Below, in pieces: positions 3,434 to 18,100 of a stretch of DNA of 38,776 bases. Made by a program: the position numbers and the translations under genes. A model generated the notes under the pieces. The model saw only the letters and a program-made list of their open reading frames with translations. It was not told the DNA's origin and searched no databases. Numbering within the stretch: position 1 is the first letter of the stretch; every line of letters starts with the position of its first letter. Source of the stretch: an uncultured Candidatus Saccharibacteria bacterium (GTDB lineage: Bacteria > Patescibacteriota > Minisyncoccia > Phycocordibacterales > Zambryskibacteraceae); the NCBI GenBank assembly GCA_964648835.1, contig CAZYLR010000002.1, positions 1-38,776 on the forward strand, read 5' to 3'.

Positions 3434-3689
3434 TTCGTATTTTAAGGCTGCCAAAAAAACAGCGTGAGAAGTTTGAGCTCTGGGAGCACCTTTTCAAAAA
3501 GAAAGCCAGGTCTTGAAGAGAGAGATGGGAGGTTTTTATGGCCACCGCTCTCATGGGTAATTCTTTCATATCCGCGGCCTTCCTTTCGGCATTGATTCGC
3601 CTATGGAATTCGTCGAGCATCTTCAGGCGTGGATGCTTGAAGAGCCCTTTAACATTGCGATTTTTTAGATTTTCGTCAATAGATTTCAT
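3420..3689 (-). CDS. hypothetical small protein (89 aa), weakly supported
   Basis: ATG ORF upstream of def-fmt and overlapping it by 14 nt. The N-terminal half is plausibly helical and basic, while the C-terminal half is low in information. No family recognised. Confidence 0.3.
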   Translation of the reverse strand: MKSIDENLKNRNVKGLFKHPRLKMLDEFHRRINAERKAADMKELPMRAVAIKTSHLSLQDLAFFLKRCSQSSNFSRCFFGSLKIRNDKN

Positions 3690-3720
3690 CCTAATATAGA
3701 ACTATAGTATCATAGCGTTA

Positions 3721-4725
3721 ATGATGGCGAAAAAACTTGGTATAGATCTCGGTACCACTAATACGCTGGTATTCGTGCCAGGTAGGGGTATTGTTTTAAA
3801 TGAACCTTCGGTCGTCGCGGTTTCCGAAGACAATAAAATTCTTGCCATCGGCGCGGAGGCTAAGATTATGATTGGTCGAACACCTGAAGGCATTTCTGCC
3901 TACCGGCCGATGAAGGATGGAGTGATCGCAGACTATCGAGTGACGGAAGCAATGCTTCGTTACTATATAAACAAAGCACTCGGGAAATGGAACATCTTCA
4001 AGCCCGATGTCTTGATCTCGGTACCGGCAGGGGTGACCTCTACCGAAAGACGGGCAGTGGTCGAAGCGGCTATCAAAGCAGGAGCTAGGAATGCTTATGT
4101 GGTCAAGGAACCGATTCTCGCCGCCATCGGCGCCGGTATTCCTATCCAGGAAGCGGCTGGTCACATGATTGTAGATATCGGTGGTGGAACCACGGACGTG
4201 GCGGTTATCGCTCTCGGAGGCATTGTTGCTTCTACTTCTGTCAAAGTGGCCGGCAACAAAATTGATGCCGCCATAGCCGACTATATCAAGAAAAATTTTA
4301 ATTTGGTTATCGGAGACAAGACAGCCGAAGATATCAAGATTACCATTGGTTCCGCCACACCGATTGACGACGAACTTGTCATGGCGGTGAAGGGTAGGGA
4401 TTTCGTACTCGGCCTACCTCGCACTATCGAAGTCAAGACCAATGAAGTAGTCAAGGCGATATCAAAAGAGTTGCGCGAGATGATTAAGGCGGTTAAAGAG
4501 GTACTTCAAGAAACTCCGCCGGAGCTCTCCTCCGACATCATCGACCGGGGGATTATTATGACCGGCGGTTCCTCCCAGTTGCGCAATTTCCCGGAACTCA
4601 TGATGCGTCGTACCGGCGTAAAGGCTGTCATGGCCAAAGATGCCTACTTTTGTGTGGCCAAAGGCACTGGCGTAGCGCTGGAGCATCTCGATATGTACAA
4701 AAAGAGCATAATTGCAAAGAGGTAG
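3721..4725 (+). CDS. mreB: rod shape-determining protein MreB
   Basis: LGIDLGTTNTLVFV, DIGGGTTDVAVI and IIMTGGSSQLRNF are the actin-fold phosphate/adenosine motifs. Length is 334 aa. Confidence 0.95.
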   Translation: MMAKKLGIDLGTTNTLVFVPGRGIVLNEPSVVAVSEDNKILAIGAEAKIMIGRTPEGISAYRPMKDGVIADYRVTEAMLRYYINKALGKWNIFKPDVLISVPAGVTSTERRAVVEAAIKAGARNAYVVKEPILAAIGAGIPIQEAAGHMIVDIGGGTTDVAVIALGGIVASTSVKVAGNKIDAAIADYIKKNFNLVIGDKTAEDIKITIGSATPIDDELVMAVKGRDFVLGLPRTIEVKTNEVVKAISKELREMIKAVKEVLQETPPELSSDIIDRGIIMTGGSSQLRNFPELMMRRTGVKAVMAKDAYFCVAKGTGVALEHLDMYKKSIIAKR

Positions 4726-11600: not shown

Positions 11601-12794
11601 ATGGATAGTCAAGATCTAAAAAGATTTACCTTGCCCGATGCGCCAGGGATCTATTTCTTCAAAAATGGTCCTAAGATTCTCTACATCGGCAAGGCGACGA
11701 GTCTCAAAGATAGGGTTAAGAGTTACTTCGCCCGTGATATTCTCATGACGAGAAGTCCCTTGATAGTCAAGATGCTTGCAGAAGCAAAAAAGATTGAGTT
11801 CATAGAAACAGATTCAGTACTTGAAGCATTGATTCTCGAAGCCAATGAGATTAAAAAACATCAACCATTCTATAATTCTAGAGAGAAGGATGATAAAAGT
11901 TATAATTATGTCACAATAACGCGAGAAGATTTCCCGAAGGTAATAGTCACGCGCGGTTATGGAACGTATGGCCCGTTTCCTTACGGAGGAGGGTTGAAGG
12001 AGGCGCTCAAAATTATCCGGAAAATTTTCCCATTCAGAGATAAATGTCTATTAGGAAAAGGCCGCCCGTGTTTCAATGCGCAGCTTGGTCTATGCCCCGG
12101 ACCATGCGCTGGATGGATATCGAAAAAGAATTATAGAAAAATTATCTACCATCTCAGACTTTTCTTTGAAGCTAAGAAACCTCAACTTATAAAATCTCTT
12201 GAGAAAGAGATGAAATTATTTGCCAGAGAACAAAAATTTGAAGATGCCGAAAAGGTCAAAAGACAAATCTTTTCTCTGAAACATATCCAAGACATTGCGC
12301 TTATCAAAGAACAATATCAGAGCCCCTCGACTACGCTCGGGGCGATTCGCTCAACGCGAATCGAGGCATATGATATTGCTCACATGTCTGGCACGAATGT
12401 GGTTGCTGTGATGACGGTAGTTTTAGACGGAGAATTGGCAAAGAGTCAGTATAGAAAGTTTAAAATTCGGCTTGATAGCAATGACGATATTCTCAGCTTG
12501 AAAGAAGTGCTTACAAGAAGGCTTGCTCATCCGGAGTGGAGATTTCCCAATCTCATTGTGGTGGATGGCGGCAGGGGGCAGTTGAATGCCGCCAGAGAAG
12601 TTCTTAAAAAAGTTGGTTTGGATATCGCTGTGGCATCTGTAGTCAAAGATGAGAAACACAAAGCCCGAGAGATTCTAGGTAAAAATGTGCAAAATTCGCT
12701 TTTGCACAAAGCAATATTTTTGGCAAATGCTGAGGCTCATCGTTTCGCAATCGGTTTCCACCGCAGGCTTCGTGGCAAAGAATTTCGTATCTAG
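11601..12794 (+). CDS. uvrC: excinuclease ABC subunit C, short form lacking the C-terminal (HhH)2 domain
   Basis: - GIY-YIG domain: GIYFFKNGPKILYIGKATSLKDRVKSYF.
- UVR motif: EKEMKLFAREQKFEDAEKVKRQI.
- RNase H-like endonuclease domain: RIEAYDIAHMSGTNVVAVMTV.
- It ends after 397 aa, whereas typical UvrC is about 600 aa. Confidence 0.85.
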   Translation: MDSQDLKRFTLPDAPGIYFFKNGPKILYIGKATSLKDRVKSYFARDILMTRSPLIVKMLAEAKKIEFIETDSVLEALILEANEIKKHQPFYNSREKDDKSYNYVTITREDFPKVIVTRGYGTYGPFPYGGGLKEALKIIRKIFPFRDKCLLGKGRPCFNAQLGLCPGPCAGWISKKNYRKIIYHLRLFFEAKKPQLIKSLEKEMKLFAREQKFEDAEKVKRQIFSLKHIQDIALIKEQYQSPSTTLGAIRSTRIEAYDIAHMSGTNVVAVMTVVLDGELAKSQYRKFKIRLDSNDDILSLKEVLTRRLAHPEWRFPNLIVVDGGRGQLNAAREVLKKVGLDIAVASVVKDEKHKAREILGKNVQNSLLHKAIFLANAEAHRFAIGFHRRLRGKEFRI

Positions 12795-12809: not shown

Positions 12810-13715
12810 ATGGCAATTTTTTCTCCACATACTCGGGTGGCAGTAATCCGGGGAGGGCAGTCTAGCGGCTATGATGATTCCCTTAAGACGGGCGAACACA
12901 TCCTTTCAGCCTTGCGGGATATGTCGGAGACCTACGAACCATTAGATATTTTTATCTCCAAAGATGGCGAATGGCACCGCGGAGGGTTGGTACATGAGCC
13001 ACATCGCGCTCTAGAGTATGTGGATATAGTTTGGAATGCGCTTCATGGCTTGTACGGAGAAGATGGCCAAGTACAGAGGATTCTTGAGAGTTTGCAAATT
13101 CCTTTCACCGGCTCGAGCGCCGTAGCCTCGGCACTTGCCATGAACAAAGATATGGCCAAACGTCTATACCAAGAGCATTCTCTCTTAACTCCCGCGCACG
13201 AACTTATTACCGAAGATAACTTGAACGAAGATCGACTGATTGACATTTTCAGAAGCTATCTTCCTCCGATGGTAGTCAAGCCTACCCGTCGATCTGGTAT
13301 GTCTCTAGTACATACCTTCGATGAGCTCAAACAATCAATCAAGGAAGCTTTCTCTCACTCGCCACGAGTGTTAGTTGAGGAGTTTATCAAAGGTGACGAG
13401 ATATCTTGTACTGTGATTGAGGGCGCTAAGGGGGAAAAATTTTACGCTCTTCTGCCATCGAGCAAATTTGAATTGAAATTAGCAGTAGAAGAAAATAAGC
13501 AGATAGAAAGGATGGCGAGGCAGGCACATGAAGTGCTTGGACTCTCCCACTACTCCAGTTCTAACTTCATCATTACGCCTCGAAAGAAGATTTATATATT
13601 GAAAACTAACTCATTGCCGGCGCTTCATAAAGATTCTTTGACGCATGGCTCACTTCACGCTGATGGTTGGCATCCTCGCGACTTCGTCAGCCATGTGCTA
13701 AAGCTTGCGATATAA
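12810..13715 (+). CDS. ddl: D-alanine--D-alanine ligase
   Basis: VAVIRGGQSSGYDDSLKTG, NALHGLYGEDGQVQRILESLQIPFTGS, and an ATP-grasp core. Length is 301 aa. Confidence 0.9.
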   Translation: MAIFSPHTRVAVIRGGQSSGYDDSLKTGEHILSALRDMSETYEPLDIFISKDGEWHRGGLVHEPHRALEYVDIVWNALHGLYGEDGQVQRILESLQIPFTGSSAVASALAMNKDMAKRLYQEHSLLTPAHELITEDNLNEDRLIDIFRSYLPPMVVKPTRRSGMSLVHTFDELKQSIKEAFSHSPRVLVEEFIKGDEISCTVIEGAKGEKFYALLPSSKFELKLAVEENKQIERMARQAHEVLGLSHYSSSNFIITPRKKIYILKTNSLPALHKDSLTHGSLHADGWHPRDFVSHVLKLAI

Positions 13716-13743
13716 ATACAATCTATATGTTTGACAGAGCGCG

Positions 13744-13772
13744 TTGAATTTAGATACACTCTACAATAGAAT
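13744..13772 (+). promoter_or_regulatory. candidate sigma70-type promoter for the GC-rich island
   Basis: TTGAAT (13744-13749), a 17-nt spacer, then TAGAAT (13767-13772). The predicted transcription start is near 13779, at the beginning of the GC-rich segment. Confidence 0.4.
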
Positions 13773-13817
13773 CTCGGCGGGGGAAAACGGTGAACTCTTC
13801 GAGAGAGCGGGGGAAAA

Positions 13818-14057
13818 ATGACGGCCGTCCTGAACAGGAGCGTCGTTTCGCCAGGAGTCGTTTGCATTGCGTGTTATACCATGCTTGGGTCCGCCGAGGA
13901 GTCGGTGCGGGGTGTGCGCGACCACAAGGAGGGGCCGCTTCACCACTTCTGCGCCACACCGGCGGAGAGGCGGGTGAATTCCGCAAGAGCTTCTCGGTTT
14001 CACTTGATCTTGATGAACGGCAACGGGAACGGCGCTTCAGCGAACCCGAACCAGTAG
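13818..14057 (+). CDS. candidate small CxxC protein (79 aa) inside a GC-rich island; could instead be part of a structured RNA
   Basis: The ATG is preceded by GCGGGGG with 4-nt spacing. By hand count about 60 of 79 codons end in G/C, clearly higher than in the overlapping frames. Contains CIAC...HHFC. No family recognised. Confidence 0.4.
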   Translation: MTAVLNRSVVSPGVVCIACYTMLGSAEESVRGVRDHKEGPLHHFCATPAERRVNSARASRFHLILMNGNGNGASANPNQ

Positions 14058-14172
14058 ATGTAACACGGGCCGTAGACACTTCGACGAAGGGAGGATAGAG
14101 TAGTAAAGCGAAATGGCTCGTCGCACCCCCGCCGAGCCAGAGGCAGCTGCCCAAGTACAAGGCCGCTGTCGA

Positions 14173-14210
14173 CCCCGGGGAGGACATCCACTCCTCGGGG
14201 CTTTCTTTTT
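14173..14210 (+). terminator. intrinsic terminator closing the GC-rich island
   Basis: 10-bp stem ccccggggag / ctcctcgggg (one G:U pair) with loop gacatcca, followed by ctttcttttt. Confidence 0.75.
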
Positions 14211-14225
14211 CGGCAATTTCCTGTT

Positions 14226-14299
14226 TGGTGGACCTAGCGAGAATCGCACTCGCGACTCGTCCATGCCATGGACGCGTGTTACTACTATACCATAGGCCC
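14226..14299 (-). tRNA. atypical tRNA-Ala(GGC)-like gene with encoded CCA
   Basis: Minus strand reads GGGCCTA-TG-GTAT-AGTAGTA-ACAC-G-CGTCC-ATGGCAT-GGACG-AGTC-GCGAG-TGCGATT-CTCGC-TAGGTCC-A-CCA.
- Canonical features: G3:U70, U33, A37.
- Deviations: no GG in the D-loop, one A:C mismatch in the D-stem, a T-loop starting UGC rather than UUC, and a 4-nt variable loop. Confidence 0.6.
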
Positions 14300-14356
14300 T
14301 TTTTCCATATTTTAATTGATTTTTTGGTTTCTGTCCTCTATACTTTCGTTTTATTA

Positions 14357-14466
14357 GGCCCTTAGCTTAGTTGTCCCGATTTTTCATAACCTAAGGTTAT
14401 AGGAAAATCGAGGATCCGCGTCCACGATTCGTAACGAATCAGGACGGGAGTAGAGCGCCTCATTTG
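14357..14466 (+). pseudogene. duplicated 5' half of tRNA-Ala(UGC), from the acceptor 5' strand to anticodon position 35, with a ~77-nt twin-hairpin insertion in the D-loop
   Basis: - 14357-14367 is identical to 14762-14772 (GGCCCTTAGCT).
- 14451-14466 is identical to 14781-14796 (TAGAGCGCCTCATTTG).
- The 14374-14450 insertion folds into two hairpins, each closed by tcc/gga and capped by a taa triloop. Confidence 0.6.
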
Positions 14467-14484
14467 TTCCGATTATGATTTTAA

Positions 14485-14736
14485 ATGTTTTATACATATA
14501 TACTGCAATCAGATAATAATTCGTTTTATATCGGGAGTTGCAAAAATATTCCTAAGCGGTTGCTGTTGCATAATAAACTAAAAGTTAGATCAACAAAGCG
14601 GTATGCGCCTTGGCAACTAGTATATTTTGAAGTCTATGAAAAATTGAGCGATGCTCGACATAGAGAGAAGCAGATAAAATCATGGAAGAAGCGAGAAAAA
14701 GTTGCAAAATTGGTAAAAACATTTAAAATTGCATAA
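14485..14736 (+). CDS. small GIY-YIG nuclease family protein (COG2827/YhbQ-like, 83 aa)
   Basis: FYTYIL...SFYIGSCKNIPKRLLLHN...YAPWQLVYFEVY...ARHREKQIKSWKK carries the GIY, YIG, Arg and Glu signature positions. Confidence 0.8.
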   Translation: MFYTYILQSDNNSFYIGSCKNIPKRLLLHNKLKVRSTKRYAPWQLVYFEVYEKLSDARHREKQIKSWKKREKVAKLVKTFKIA

Positions 14737-14760
14737 TCGAGAATCCTCGAAAACAAAGGT

Positions 14761-14834
14761 GGGCCCTTAGCTCATCTGGCTAGAGCGCCTCATTTGCAAT
14801 GAGGAGGTGGCAGGTTCGAGTCCTGTAGGGTCCA
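14761..14834 (+). tRNA. tRNA-Ala (anticodon UGC)
   Basis: GGGCCCT-TA-GCTC-ATCTGGCTA-GAGC-G-CCTCA-TTTGCAA-TGAGG-AGGTG-GCAGG-TTCGAGT-CCTGT-AGGGTCC-A. G3:U70 is present. The D-loop GG and the TTCGA T-loop are canonical. Confidence 0.9.
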
Positions 14835-15197
14835 CCTTTGTTTTCGGGACAATGCTGAAAGTTCTATCTGGTGGGAAATTATGAACCTTGAACGAAACTA
14901 TTTTGAGGGAAACTGACTCGCCTCCGCTTGGTTCGACCAAGCTCACCACAAGTCTCTCCGGCGGGACGCTCAGGCGCGGCGGAAGGAATGGAATTAATTG
15001 TATCTACTTATCCATATGAATGTTTATGTATGATTATTAAACTTAGGAGACTAATCGTAAATTTTTCTAGTTAAAAACTAAGTGCAAAAATAGGCCTATA
15101 TATCGATCTATATATCTCTCAATACTCTTTACATTCTTTGCTATGGTGGTAGTTGGAAGTATGTTAAAATTATTTAGAGGACCGAACATAAAATATT

Positions 15198-18100
15198 ATG
15201 ATAAAATATTTCACGAGTTATAAACAAATTCTACTCCTTGCTTTCTTTTTCTTTGTTCTATTTGGGGGTTATTTTTTGACTGCAGAGGCACAAGTGGTTG
15301 CTCCAAAAGGGCTCTATTTTCTTGAAATCACTTCTCCGAGAGATTCTCCTTTTGGCAGCTACAAAAGGTATCACGATTTTCATAAAATAAATGGAACCTA
15401 TTTTATTCAGGCTTGGCTTTTCACTCCACCTGGCGGCACCATACCTTGCTATCCGGGTAGAACCGATTGTCCAGTAAACAAAAGACTTAACCCATGGCCA
15501 ACAATATGGCTCACCCTGGATGGCGTTAGAATCACTGGCCCGATAAATGCGCCTCCTTATCAGACTTCTCTGAATACAAGACTCTATGAGGATGGAAGCC
15601 ATGTTGTGGGCGCAGATGTCATAGCGAATGATGGATCTGACATACAGGTGGTTGCAGCTACAGTCACCATAGACAATACAATAGGTGGCAGAACAGGACC
15701 TCAAAGGGTAGCAGCCTGCCCGGTTAAGTATGATTTGGAAAAAGGATTAAGACCCGGCTGTGACTGGTCCACTTATCCTGGCAGTTATCCGGGGCTTTCA
15801 GGCTTTCCTCTTCCAGATACAAGGCCAGGAACGCTATATACTTCGCTTGTCTCTTCAAAAGATTTGTGGGTAGAAAGAATGACCACGACAGGAAATTTTC
15901 TTTACAAATTCTATGAAACTCCCGGAAACCATATAACAATCTTGCCCAGGCAAAGATATGCCCATGCAGACCTGAATTATCCATTAATTCCATTAGTCGA
16001 CGGGCCTAGAAACGTAAATCAGGAAGGTTACCTTGTAGGCGGATATGTTGACAAAACCAACGGCGACTTATATGCCATTGCCACCCAAGGTAATTTCGTA
16101 CAGATAACAACTAGAGGGGACATAATAACCCATGCGGGCCAAAGATTGAAATTAGGAGTTAATCCATATTTTTGGAATTCAGGGTTCGTTAATTTGTTTG
16201 GTTCGTCCGGTCCTCCATTCGCCGGCAGCAGAAGTGAGATAATCGGCAATTTTGTGGATGGGCCGAAAGGCTTGAAAGAGCCATGGGACGTTGTGCAAGA
16301 TCCTTTAGATCCTACAGGCAAAACAGCTTACATTTCTGATACGTTGAATCACAGAATTGTAAAAGTAGATATGAAGACTTTGCCGGCAACAGTAACCACA
16401 TATGCGGGTAGCTTAATAAAGACAAGAGGTTACAAAGATGGCGTTGGAACGGAAGCACTATTCAACGAGCCTTGGGGGCTTGCAATTGATGCAAGCGGCA
16501 ATCTTTACGTTACTGACAGATTGAATCACGCTTTGAGAAAGATAGATACAAGCAGAAAAGTCACAACTATTATAAAATCTGCAAAAAATCCTGGAAACGC
16601 AGGAATTACAGACAACTACAGAACGGTTGGAACATCGGGCTTGTCTTTGGCAGCAAGACAATCTATGTACATGATAAATGGCAATTTGAGTAGCGCCTCA
16701 TTAATATTTCCTGAAGGGCTTGAATTTAATTCTGAGGGAAAACTGATTGTTGCAGAGAATTTCATGATGACTCTGAGAAAAATTGATCTGGCAACCAACA
16801 ACATTAGCGCCATGGGCACGATACCATCGGCAAATGATGCAAATCTGAAAAATATCAATATAAACATCGATACAGAAGGCACATGCGGTCCCAAAGATGA
16901 TATTTTAATTGCTACATTTGCGCAAACAGGACCCTGGAGATTGAATGCCAATGGCGGGTACAGGGGAAATTTGTTCACTATTAGCAATAAAATAGAATTG
17001 CCGACAGGAAGGGCCAATACGATGGTTGATGTTCAGTATCCTTGGCTTGCTATTTGCGGAAACGGCGCAATATGGACGAATGGAGCAGCAACCCAGGGTG
17101 TTTTCAGAACAACGCTTGCAAAAACAACCGATCCTGTTATGTCAGCCAGCGATATTGGAAGATATAGTTCAGGGAGACAGATTTACAAATCAGGAGGTTT
17201 GAGTACCTTTCCACCAAGGCCTTCGTTTGAATTAACGCATGGAGTAGACGGGATAAATCATAACGGCAATTTTCCGTCATTTGATGAACTAAACAGCGCA
17301 AGCGATGATGAACTGAAAACACAGATACAAGCAGGATGGGGAAGCTCAACAGGCCCGAGGCCGGAGATAAGCGGCAGAGACTTGGACAACCTGATCTTTT
17401 ATATAAGATGGAACTGCGTGCCTTGCATAAGATCGGGCAACATCAGAGCTACTCCTTTGCCGGGCGATATAACAGCGCCAATAATAAGTGGCATTACGAT
17501 TGAAGAAAGAGCACTTACAAGCGCCAAAATAAAATGGACAACAAGTGAGCCGACAGTCGGATTTATAAAATTCTGGCGGACTGCGCCACATGGGGGATTC
17601 TCCAATGTCGAAGATAGTTATAAAACTAATCATGAAGTTACAGTAACAGGATTGTCGCCCGGCATTACTTATTTCTATACGATACGATCCAAAGATGAGC
17701 CGGGCAATCAGGCTGTAAGTTCGGTTCTGGTTTTTACCACCATCAATGACGGCAGTACTGATACAGTTAAACCCTCCGTGACAATTACAAATCCGATAAA
17801 CGATTCCACCGTGACAGGAACAATAACGATTTCAGCAGTAGCCAGCGATGACAAAGGTGTTGCGGGCGTGCAATTTCAAGTAGATGGTGTAAATTTCGGC
17901 AGCGAAGATCAAACAGCGCCATATTCTGTTTCGTGGGATACTGCAACAGCACTGGCTGGTATACACAGGATAAATGCGATTGCAAGAGATGCGGCGGGTA
18001 ATACAGCGGGTGCAATACCCGTCTTTGTAAAAATTAATGTGATTTCCCCATCAACACTAATCAAAGCTGTTAAAAGTGGTTTGTGGAGCAACATGACGAC

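Follow-up and report, generated by a model that had tools for sequence, protein, structure and literature searches.

A putative selfish cassette encoding a small GIY-YIG nuclease and a complete tRNA-Ala within a resident tRNA-Ala gene of a Patescibacterium

Organisation of the locus

In a 38,776-nt stretch of DNA from an uncultured Candidatus Saccharibacteria bacterium (GenBank assembly GCA_964648835.1, contig CAZYLR010000002.1; this whole stretch is hereafter the window, and all coordinates are positions in it), a gene for a small GIY-YIG nuclease stands between the 5' half of a tRNA-Ala gene and a complete tRNA-Ala(UGC). The closest named matches to the neighbouring D-alanine ligase came from Zambryskibacteria, and the organism is a Patescibacterium. 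The present work concerns the segment 14467-14849, which comprises the nuclease open reading frame (ORF) and the complete tRNA and is referred to below as the element, and the interrupted, resident tRNA gene that surrounds it.

A preliminary description of the locus, read from the letters alone, was checked by repeat search, ARAGORN, Rfam, Pfam and folding with 200 shuffles, and all of its sequence statements were found correct, coordinate for coordinate. The two blocks shared by the upstream half and the intact tRNA, reported as 11/11 and 16/16, are exact and colinear: the 11-mer GGCCCTTAGCT at 14357-14367 recurs at 14762-14772 and the 16-mer TAGAGCGCCTCATTTG at 14451-14466 recurs at 14781-14796, neither with a third copy in the 38.8-kb window. 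The twin hairpin seen in the upstream half was recovered by folding of 14357-14466 (-42.9 kcal/mol, z = -5.2, none of 200 shuffles being as stable). The ORF at 14485-14736 is a GIY-YIG gene by Pfam (E = 5.6e-16), the tRNA-Ala(UGC) downstream of it is complete according to both ARAGORN and Rfam, and no integrase is encoded between the tRNA pieces, as had been said. What had escaped that reading is a stem of 16-17 nt around the intact tRNA, the right inverted end of the element and the continuation CAATG beyond it. The features of the locus are as follows.

14316-14344, plus strand: promoter of the resident tRNA gene, sigma-70 type (TTGATT, 17 nt, TATACT), from a promoter scan
14356-14373, plus strand: relic of the resident tRNA, positions 1-18 (acceptor 5' strand and D-arm to G18), with G1 changed to A and positions 2-18 as in the uninterrupted gene of a relative (L098)
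14374-14449, no strand assigned: miniature element of 76 nt without ORF or tRNA, in the D-loop of the relic between G18 and G19
14450-14466, plus strand: relic positions 19-35, ending at anticodon G35, 17/17 identical to L098
14467-14849, plus strand: full element, 383 bp, consisting of left end, arm 1 with the ORF, centre, arm 2 with the tRNA, and right end
14467-14473, plus strand: left inverted end TTCCGAT (family consensus TCCCGAT)
14467-14743, plus strand: arm 1, with a closing stem of ~25 bp formed by 14467-14491 and about 14719-14743
14485-14736, plus strand: GIY-YIG gene, 83 aa, catalytic domain only
14736-14751, no strand assigned: palindromic centre ATCGAGAA/TCCTCGAA (family consensus ATCGNGGA/TCCNCGAT)
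14744-14849, plus strand: arm 2, in which TCCTCGAAAACAAAGGT (14744-14760) pairs with ACCTTTGTTTTCGGGA (14834-14849)
14761-14836, plus strand: cargo tRNA-Ala(UGC), complete, by ARAGORN (Rfam 14761-14834, 62.9 bits)
14843-14849, plus strand: right inverted end TTCGGGA (family consensus ATCGGGA), downstream of the tRNA
14850-14854, plus strand: 3' remnant of the relic, CAATG, positions 36-40; the rest of the 3' half is lost

Apart from these, a tRNA-Ala(GGC) lies at 14226-14299 on the opposite strand. Rfam returned three tRNAs only for the whole window at the gathering threshold, and at E <= 1 over 13600-15200 again nothing but tRNAs, the hairpins matching no intron, riboswitch or other family. 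A tblastn search of the window gave no further copy of the gene for this small protein.

Empty, occupied and decayed sites

The corresponding loci of relatives were fetched via the neighbouring D-alanine ligase gene. In L098, with a ligase 74% identical, the same promoter is followed by an uninterrupted tRNA-Ala(UGC), that is, an empty site. When 14374-14449 and 14467-14849 are taken out of the window, the remaining sequence agrees with L098 in 72/80 positions across promoter and tRNA, and in 39/39 over tRNA positions 2-40, the change of G1 to A being the only one in the relic; excision of 14374-14449 also gives back the native D-loop of the L098 type. This near-identity identifies the upstream half as the native gene and both insertions as precise, without target duplication, and the earlier proposal that the upstream half is a relic of the original gene was thereby borne out (17/17 identity and identity over positions 2-18). 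The resident promoter and 5' half survive at 14316-14466, the promoter lying upstream of relic, ORF and cargo tRNA alike.

A different state was found in L100 (ligase 77% identical), where a promoter is immediately followed by ttcgtaatcgagaa, ttctcgaaaacaaaggt, the same cargo tRNA, acctttgttttcggga and CAATGAG. It matches the window in 121/122 nt over the arm 1 remnant, arm 2, cargo tRNA, right end and CAATG, and has neither ORF nor 5' relic; it is a decayed site. Relatives therefore hold both occupied and empty alleles (L098 empty, the window occupied, L100 occupied minus the ORF) and do not share one fixed arrangement.

Compared with the native tRNA of L098, the cargo tRNA differs in eight alignment columns (seven substitutions and one extra base in the D-loop, which reads CUCAUCUGGCU), all falling in the D-loop and T-stem, and it is identical to the cargo of L100. 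It is the only tRNA-Ala(UGC) of the window. The cargo tRNA is foreign relative to the resident gene, and the latter was destroyed by the insertion and then decayed through the change of G1 to A, the entry of a miniature into the D-loop and the loss of the 3' half. Comparison with the relatives firmly supports insertion between G35 and C36, a complete foreign cargo tRNA, decay of the split gene and loss of the ORF in a relative.

In the population from which the window comes, this arrangement is fixed. The protein was found on 20 contigs, and the five longest aligned ones (L001, L002, L003, L005 and the window) are identical over 14300-15200; apparent length variation among strains came from gene-start calls and was discarded. 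It should be mentioned that ~75 nt past the element, at 14924-14946 on the plus strand, GCTTGGTTCGACCAAGCTCACCA forms an isolated T-arm-like hairpin followed by ACCA; it is unlike the 3' half of the native tRNA-Ala of L098 and may be the remnant of another tRNA.

Architecture of the element

Folded as single-strand DNA, the full element forms exactly two arms (z = -7.75), and its 7-bp inverted ends depart from the family consensus by one mismatch each. In the fold, the stem of arm 1 covers both the ATG and the final codons of the ORF, and its strand complementarity, measured ungapped, is 0.72 within loci vs 0.53 between loci. The stem of arm 2 pairs perfectly and prolongs the acceptor stem, with the tRNA cloverleaf at the tip of the arm; ACCTTTGTTTTCGGGA overlaps the last three called bases of the tRNA and runs on beyond them. 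Across 19 elements 98.4% of the cells in this stem are paired, 12 of the 16 pairs have changed on both sides, and double changes occupy 63 cells vs 13.9 in shuffles, a count reached by 0/500 of them, while slid controls pair at most 52%. The arm 2 stems are kept by compensatory change.

These data amend the preliminary description in several points. It had a small GIY-YIG cassette invading the anticodon loop after position 35, which holds; the end of this cassette, set at 14796, lies at 14849, and the proposal that only a replacement 5' half was brought along fails, the element carrying a complete foreign tRNA-Ala within its second hairpin. The 12-mer AATCGAG(G/A)ATCC, noted in two places, is indeed present, but was dismissed as weak: it belongs to the conserved palindromic centre motif ATCGNGGATCCNCGA, found in 30/53 tRNA-linked loci, and its two occurrences are the centres of two related elements. 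Likewise, the twin hairpin in the D-loop was rightly seen as the trace of a separate related insertion, but it is no scar; it is an intact, cargo-less miniature of the same family, with TCCCGAT on the left, CGGGA on the right (a degenerate ATCGGGA), ATCGAGGA/TCCGCG at the centre and short loops in place of cargo. A pattern search of the window found this miniature once vs 0.00 expected.

The element entered the resident tRNA-Ala(UGC) between G35 and C36 without target duplication. The anticodon loop of the cargo also holds TTGCAA, so that insertion leaves the target present in the host. The only ORF within the element is the GIY-YIG domain; transposases of the DDE, HUH, serine and tyrosine types are not encoded in it, and neither is a TnpA (Y1 HUH) or TnpB, as would be looked for in an IS200/IS605 element. 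The repeated tRNA pieces correspond to the 5' half and not to a 3' att repeat of the integrase type. In six relatives (L015, L017, L020, L041, L046, L050) a second acceptor 3' strand was observed between cargo tRNA and arm 2 stem, for instance GGGTCCAC agttcac GGGTCCACCA; the doubled strand may have been left behind when the cargo tRNA was exchanged at an earlier time.

The GIY-YIG protein

The match of the 83-aa protein to PF01541 reaches 59 bits against a cut-off of 22.6, and all 17 invariant columns of the family are kept; Y5, Y15, G17, R25, H29, N30 and E61 are invariant in 33 relatives. In a profile search of PDB, the UPF0213 proteins BH0048 (6e-9) and EF2693 ranked first, followed by Slx1 (1zg2 6.2e-9, 1ywl 3.6e-7, Slx1 4e-5 to 8e-4), with I-TevI at only 2e-3. 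The AF2 model (pLDDT 92.5) shows strand, strand, two helices, strand and two helices, and Foldseek placed 1zg2, Slx1 and 1ywl first, the same order as the profile. A PHROGs scan of the protein gave nothing, and NCBIfam nothing above its cut-offs. By profile and by predicted structure the protein is thus assigned to the GIY-YIG superfamily and within it to an UPF0213/SLX1-like clade, not to the I-TevI or UvrC type. Slx1 is a structure-specific nuclease that acts on branched DNA. It should be noted that a UvrC-like gene lies at 11601-12794 on the plus strand; its product of 397 aa is short for UvrC and matches UvrC_M, UVR (weakly) and UvrC_RNaseH_dom only, with a GIY-YIG-like N-terminus discernible by eye, and it is unrelated to the ORF of the element.

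The family across genomes

Close homologues of the ORF numbered 79, all short and all from Patescibacteria-type sources. Linkage to tRNA genes was counted in the best 80 of 438 loci encoding relatives, one genome per species, a tRNA being scored as linked when it lay on the same strand and its start was at -40 to +60 nt relative to the point where the ORF match ended. In line with the association that the preliminary description had supposed, 45/80 ORFs have a tRNA directly downstream on the same strand, and these tRNAs include types other than Ala: Ala(CGC) 18, Ala(UGC) 9, Glu 13, Gly 2, Ile 1, Thr 1 and one unassigned. In 8 others of the 80, the ORF closely follows the end of a tRNA.

Motifs of the chassis were counted in the window and in 52 fetched loci, 53 in all, each with a tRNA a short way downstream. 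The left end was recognised in 35, the centre in 30 and the right end in 28; all three occur in 22/53 (the window and 21 others), with element lengths of 375-424 bp, and most of these 22 are flanked by both halves of a split resident tRNA. Upon excision in silico, ARAGORN called a tRNA across the junction in seven loci with Ala cargo (L015, L030, L038, L042, L047, L050, L051) and also in L052, where a tRNA-Thr(CGT) cargo sits within a tRNA-Thr(CGT) gene. The restored tRNA is the isoacceptor of the cargo in L030, L038, L042, L047, L050, L051 and L052; the mutated relic restored in L015 was called tRNA-Cys(gca), and excision in L022 gave an unassigned call only. Ala and Thr thus provide two separate cases in which the tRNA type of the cargo matches that of the target. 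Moreover, L016, L027 and L032 display nested or serial invasions with older relics displaced outward by newer ones, and the cargo tRNAs of L012, L016 and L027 have themselves been invaded, nested or in tandem, which is not the self-immunity known from homing.

Insertion is not confined to tRNA genes. ORF-bearing elements without tRNA occupy the first codons of protein genes in L029 (atpG-like) and L031 (rpmE-like), both at about 1900-2420, and a gene for a CQNC-motif protein is interrupted likewise in L035, L036 and L076 (around 1900-2300). Double-hairpin elements in protein genes occur with or without the GIY-YIG ORF, and a topA-like gene is also among the targets. The order in these genes is a relic gene start, the element and then, a few bases downstream, a second, diverged and intact start; where it can be read (L029, L031 and L201, the last at 3587-3760), the relic continues for 11-21 nt past the element before this second start. 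Replacement of gene segments thus seems to extend to protein genes, and the common theme, judged from the arrangements compared, is insertion into an essential gene together with a compensating copy. The family is common and widespread in Patescibacteria.

Several further variants were observed. The closest homologue (72% identical; L011 2871-3343, L012 2871-3694, and L013) lies in a 16S-type spacer after tRNA-Ile and has degenerate ends. In two of these assemblies (L012, L013) a whole 399-nt unit of relic, miniature and ORF is present twice in tandem; since the copy has degenerate ends, recombination between 27-nt repeats is preferred to end-dependent insertion as the origin of these tandems. 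In a tRNA-Glu subfamily (L063, L044, L056, L070, L078, L084) the stop of the ORF abuts or overlaps the 5' end of the tRNA, and miniatures whose ends are of the TGCCGA type lie between positions 11 and 12 in the 5' parts of the tRNA-Glu relics; in L070 arm 1 holds the ORF plus the tRNA and arm 2 is short. Finally, in nine loci (L058, L060, L074, L075, L086, L091, L092, L068, L090; ~1860-2400) from Chloroflexota, Acidobacteriota, Bacteroidota and Ignavibacteria-type genomes, a homologous small GIY-YIG ORF follows an intact tRNA by 9-60 nt and a relic 3' part of the same tRNA lies downstream, up to 100% identical over 27-39 nt. This is the mirror image of the order in Patescibacteria, and some of the loci (L086) form tandem arrays.

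Miniatures and target sequence

Further copies of the twin-hairpin module are present in other loci, and more were sought in metagenome contigs by scanning with a strict pattern for cargo-less double hairpins. At least 120 stretches with at least 129 distinct miniatures of 39-90 nt were obtained. Among the miniatures listed, 16/130 have a tRNA no more than 150 nt away, roughly a fourfold excess over the 3.3% expected, and 12/130 are near a GIY-YIG gene. We considered whether miniatures always reside in tRNAs and rejected this: excision of the 130 listed metagenomic copies restored no ARAGORN tRNA over the junction. The TCCCGAT/ATCGGGA ends are common to the 22 full elements and the miniatures, as in inverted-end elements with miniature (MITE) derivatives. 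Target-site duplications were not found, excision restoring tRNAs exactly with no doubled bases.

The flanks of 129 listed miniatures show T.49, T.49, G.66 on the left and C.64, A.53, A.44 on the right, over a background of 0.21-0.29. This consensus is palindromic with the element at the dyad, TTG^CAA, and U33-U34-G35 and C36-A37-A38 in the anticodon loop of tRNA-Ala(UGC) correspond to it exactly; hence tRNA-Ala(UGC) can be a recurrent target without any recognition of tRNA structure. Insertion into tRNA loops only, as a folded target, was rejected: miniatures also occur within tRNA stems (between positions 11 and 12, 28 and 29, and 40 and 41) and in non-tRNA DNA, and a sequence target fits better. 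A scan of viral contigs with the centre motif gave 38 matches, including one real-looking miniature (L138), the rest being chance matches in GC-rich coding DNA; the viral contigs scanned for this motif show no sign of phages carrying the element.

Proposed mechanism and alternative explanations

We consider it likely that 14467-14849 is a compact selfish mobile cassette of a double-hairpin family with inverted ends, moving by a nuclease-driven homing scheme. In this scheme the host would keep decoding alanine codons through the cargo tRNA, and the insertion would for this reason be tolerated. ORF and cargo tRNA would be transcribed from the captured promoter of the resident tRNA, with the arm 1 stem concealing the start codon and thereby keeping nuclease expression low, and tRNA processing would remove the arm 2 stem. 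The nuclease would break uninterrupted sites of the TTG^CAA type or act on the bases of the element's own hairpins. The full cassette could then spread among tRNA-Ala genes by repair copying, the split halves serving as homology arms, which would account for the constant site and the cognate cargo; the cargo-less miniatures would be non-autonomous relatives mobilised in trans through the shared ends. Since the copy in the window has lost its right homology arm and has degenerate ends, it is probably fixed and incapable of homing.

Several observations weigh against this scheme. The 83-aa protein is a catalytic domain without an obvious module for DNA recognition, so that to cut specifically at TTG^CAA it would have to dimerise or act together with a partner. 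The cargo recreates the target, whereas classical insertion of a homing endonuclease gene destroys the site. Miniatures occur at many unrelated sites, those near tRNAs being the minority given above, and homology-driven homing cannot explain this scatter, so that a second, end-dependent mechanism has to be assumed. Neither conserved inverted ends nor covarying hairpins are needed for simple homing. Furthermore, the arrangement is fixed in the population and the 3' homology arm has gone.

The main rival to homing is end-dependent transposition, and we infer either mode of movement from the sequences compared. According to it the elements are true transposons, the GIY-YIG protein is a transposase-like enzyme working on the inverted ends or hairpin bases, and insertion may take place at any TTG^CAA; tRNA-Ala genes would be struck since their anticodon loop is such a site, and only copies that have captured a tRNA would survive there. 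We judge this rather unlikely, yet it draws on much of the same evidence: full elements and miniatures alike have conserved the inverted ends, the palindromic centre and the covarying arms, a common flank consensus is shared by at least 129 distinct miniatures at unrelated sites, ORF copies without tRNA lie inside protein genes (L029, L031, L035, L036, L076), and the protein falls in the structure-specific SLX1/UPF0213 clade. What speaks against it is that GIY-YIG enzymes hydrolyse DNA and, to our knowledge, have no strand-transfer chemistry, that target duplication is absent, and that few of the listed miniatures (12/130) are near a GIY-YIG gene. Moreover, tRNA-cargo elements were found only in tRNAs of the amino-acid family of their cargo and always at the same position, as predicted by homology-driven copying.

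Two other readings are contradicted by the data. The model of the preliminary description, which we now hold to be very improbable, took 14467-14796 as a cassette of ~0.33 kb with a replacement 5' half and the present tRNA as a hybrid of element 5' and host 3' parts. Deletion of 14467-14796 does rejoin a continuous tRNA, as was claimed; tRNA-Glu-linked ORFs abut tRNA position 26 and L063 shows no downstream relic; and the 5' gene segment is duplicated in protein-gene insertions. Nevertheless, the arm 2 stem and the right end lie past the tRNA and are followed by CAATG, resident positions 36-40, the present T-stem is unlike that of native L098 and identical in L100 along with the flanking stem, and a full 3' relic follows the right end in many loci. 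Still less credible is a non-mobile, conserved operon in which the GIY-YIG protein has a tRNA-linked housekeeping role, the hairpins are signals for RNA processing or termination and the half-tRNA arose by local tandem duplication. The identity of all aligned strain contigs and the intact, conserved ORF would agree with it, and the hairpins, with a paired start codon and an arm 2 stem prolonging the acceptor stem, could act in RNA; it is contradicted by the empty site of L098 and the tRNAs restored from split halves in other genomes, and further by the ORF-less site, the non-native type of the cargo tRNA, the nested invasions and the occurrence of the same chassis in protein genes and intergenic DNA.

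Least probable of all, and practically dismissed, is removal of element and miniature from the transcript like introns (group I or bulge-helix-bulge) to leave a functional resident tRNA: the insertions do lie in anticodon loop and D-loop with hairpins that juxtapose both junctions, but the resident gene has G1 changed to A and no 3' half left for splicing, Rfam gave no intron match at the gathering threshold or at E <= 1, and miniatures also sit inside stems (11/12, 28/29) and in non-tRNA DNA.

Neighbouring DNA

Directly after the D-alanine ligase gene, at 13731-14209 on the plus strand, lies a GC-rich, conserved non-coding stretch of ~440 nt with its own conserved promoter (TTGACA-18-TACACT, 13731-13760), closed by an intrinsic terminator that is strong (14173-14209). 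The relatives L094 and L097 retain the stretch with substitutions and indels, and Rfam, even at E <= 10, gave for it only noise-level matches, all far below the gathering scores. A minus-strand ORF of 145 aa called in this stretch is probably spurious, and the stretch itself is a candidate for an unknown or very divergent structured RNA.

Implications

The locus illustrates that a parasite which supplies a replacement from within itself can destroy a tRNA gene without apparent cost, after which the host depends on the foreign copy; L100, with the ORF gone and the cargo tRNA kept, shows the end state. Genes for tRNAs in Patescibacteria can accordingly be replaced horizontally, and half-tRNA relics or odd hairpins beside tRNA genes are footprints of such replacement and neither assembly errors nor introns. 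The very common small genes annotated as "GIY-YIG nuclease family protein" or UPF0213, which have had no settled role, gain a concrete candidate one. If the mechanism is end-dependent, an element of 0.38 kb whose target is a defined palindrome and whose chassis is structured could also become a compact insertion tool.

The elements are best grouped with those selfish elements that encode a nuclease and offset the loss of the gene they interrupt, with a substantial chance that they make up a new class of transposable element. More tentatively, as something possible that we do not at present expect, double-hairpin elements might be an unrecognised class of bacterial mobile DNA, with an 83-aa SLX1-like nuclease as their sole protein, acting on their own hairpin or cruciform ends and on the palindrome TTG^CAA. 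They would then be among the smallest autonomous elements (~0.38 kb), with miniatures throughout Patescibacteria genomes and lineages that persist in essential genes by means of a spare copy, either the tRNA in the arm or the duplicated 5' end of a protein gene; the cassettes of Chloroflexota, Acidobacteriota and Bacteroidota would in that case point to a general, overlooked route of horizontal tRNA-gene replacement.

Comparison with known systems

Short hairpin-forming palindromic doublets of high copy number, presumably mobilised in trans, are known as REP/REPIN with RAYT, as RPE and as Correia elements. REPINs depend on HUH/Y1 RAYT proteins, the gene for the enzyme lying outside the repeat, whereas the present repeat encodes its candidate enzyme, a GIY-YIG nuclease, in one of its own arms and in some copies also bears a tRNA. 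REP classes are covered in PMC3733652. Islands and prophages driven by an integrase rely on tyrosine or serine recombinases, are bounded by 3' att direct repeats and measure kilobases; those that target tRNAs bring a copy of the segment they displace, so that the tRNA still functions. In contrast, the present element of 383 bp has no integrase and no direct repeat, and replaces the whole tRNA. With IS200/IS605 it shares solely the absence of target duplication, its ends being inverted repeats.

Among homing systems, SegB of phage T4 is described as a free-standing homing endonuclease of the GIY-YIG type whose gene belongs to a cluster of tRNA genes; it recognises 27 bp within a conserved motif of tRNAs (PMC2330249). 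As here, a GIY-YIG gene stands among tRNA genes, and SegB spreads with adjacent tRNA genes, displacing the tRNA region of the recipient (PMC2330249). Unlike the 83-aa UPF0213/SLX1-type domain on a bacterial chromosome, it is a larger enzyme and phage-borne, and its abstract mentions no inverted ends, double hairpin, miniatures or insertion inside a tRNA gene (PMC2330249).

Mobile endonuclease ORFs of fungal mitochondria, as summarised for the hybrid Glomus genes atp6, atp9, cox2 and nad3, likewise combine a selfish endonuclease in an essential gene with a foreign replacement part and the original part as a relic (PMC3630166). They replace only the terminus of a protein gene, whereas here a whole tRNA gene is carried in a hairpin arm, and the abstract mentions no inverted ends, hairpin chassis or miniatures (PMC3630166). 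The protein-gene insertions in L029 and L031 are the closer parallel to these ORFs. A further example of a hybrid gene in fungal mitochondria is Allomyces atp6.

Dada elements, eukaryotic DNA transposons, insert at one specific position in tRNA genes (including tRNA-Ala) and snRNA genes (PMC3706591). They employ a DDE transposase and create target duplications of 6-7 bp, neither of which was found here, and they rely on multicopy targets, with no replacement gene mentioned in the abstract, whereas a spare tRNA is carried by the present element (PMC3706591).

Full-text searches of the literature on GIY-YIG with tRNA or Patescibacteria, and on palindromic repeats of Patescibacteria, found no description of the element; GIY-YIG domain genes are among the predicted transfers from Patescibacteria to other bacteria (PMC12455944). 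Each of the systems compared above shares one or two traits with the element, and by what we have read and know none appears to unite all of them, namely coding for a GIY-YIG domain only, inverted ends, a covarying double hairpin, insertion without target duplication, accompanying miniatures and a whole tRNA borne in one arm.

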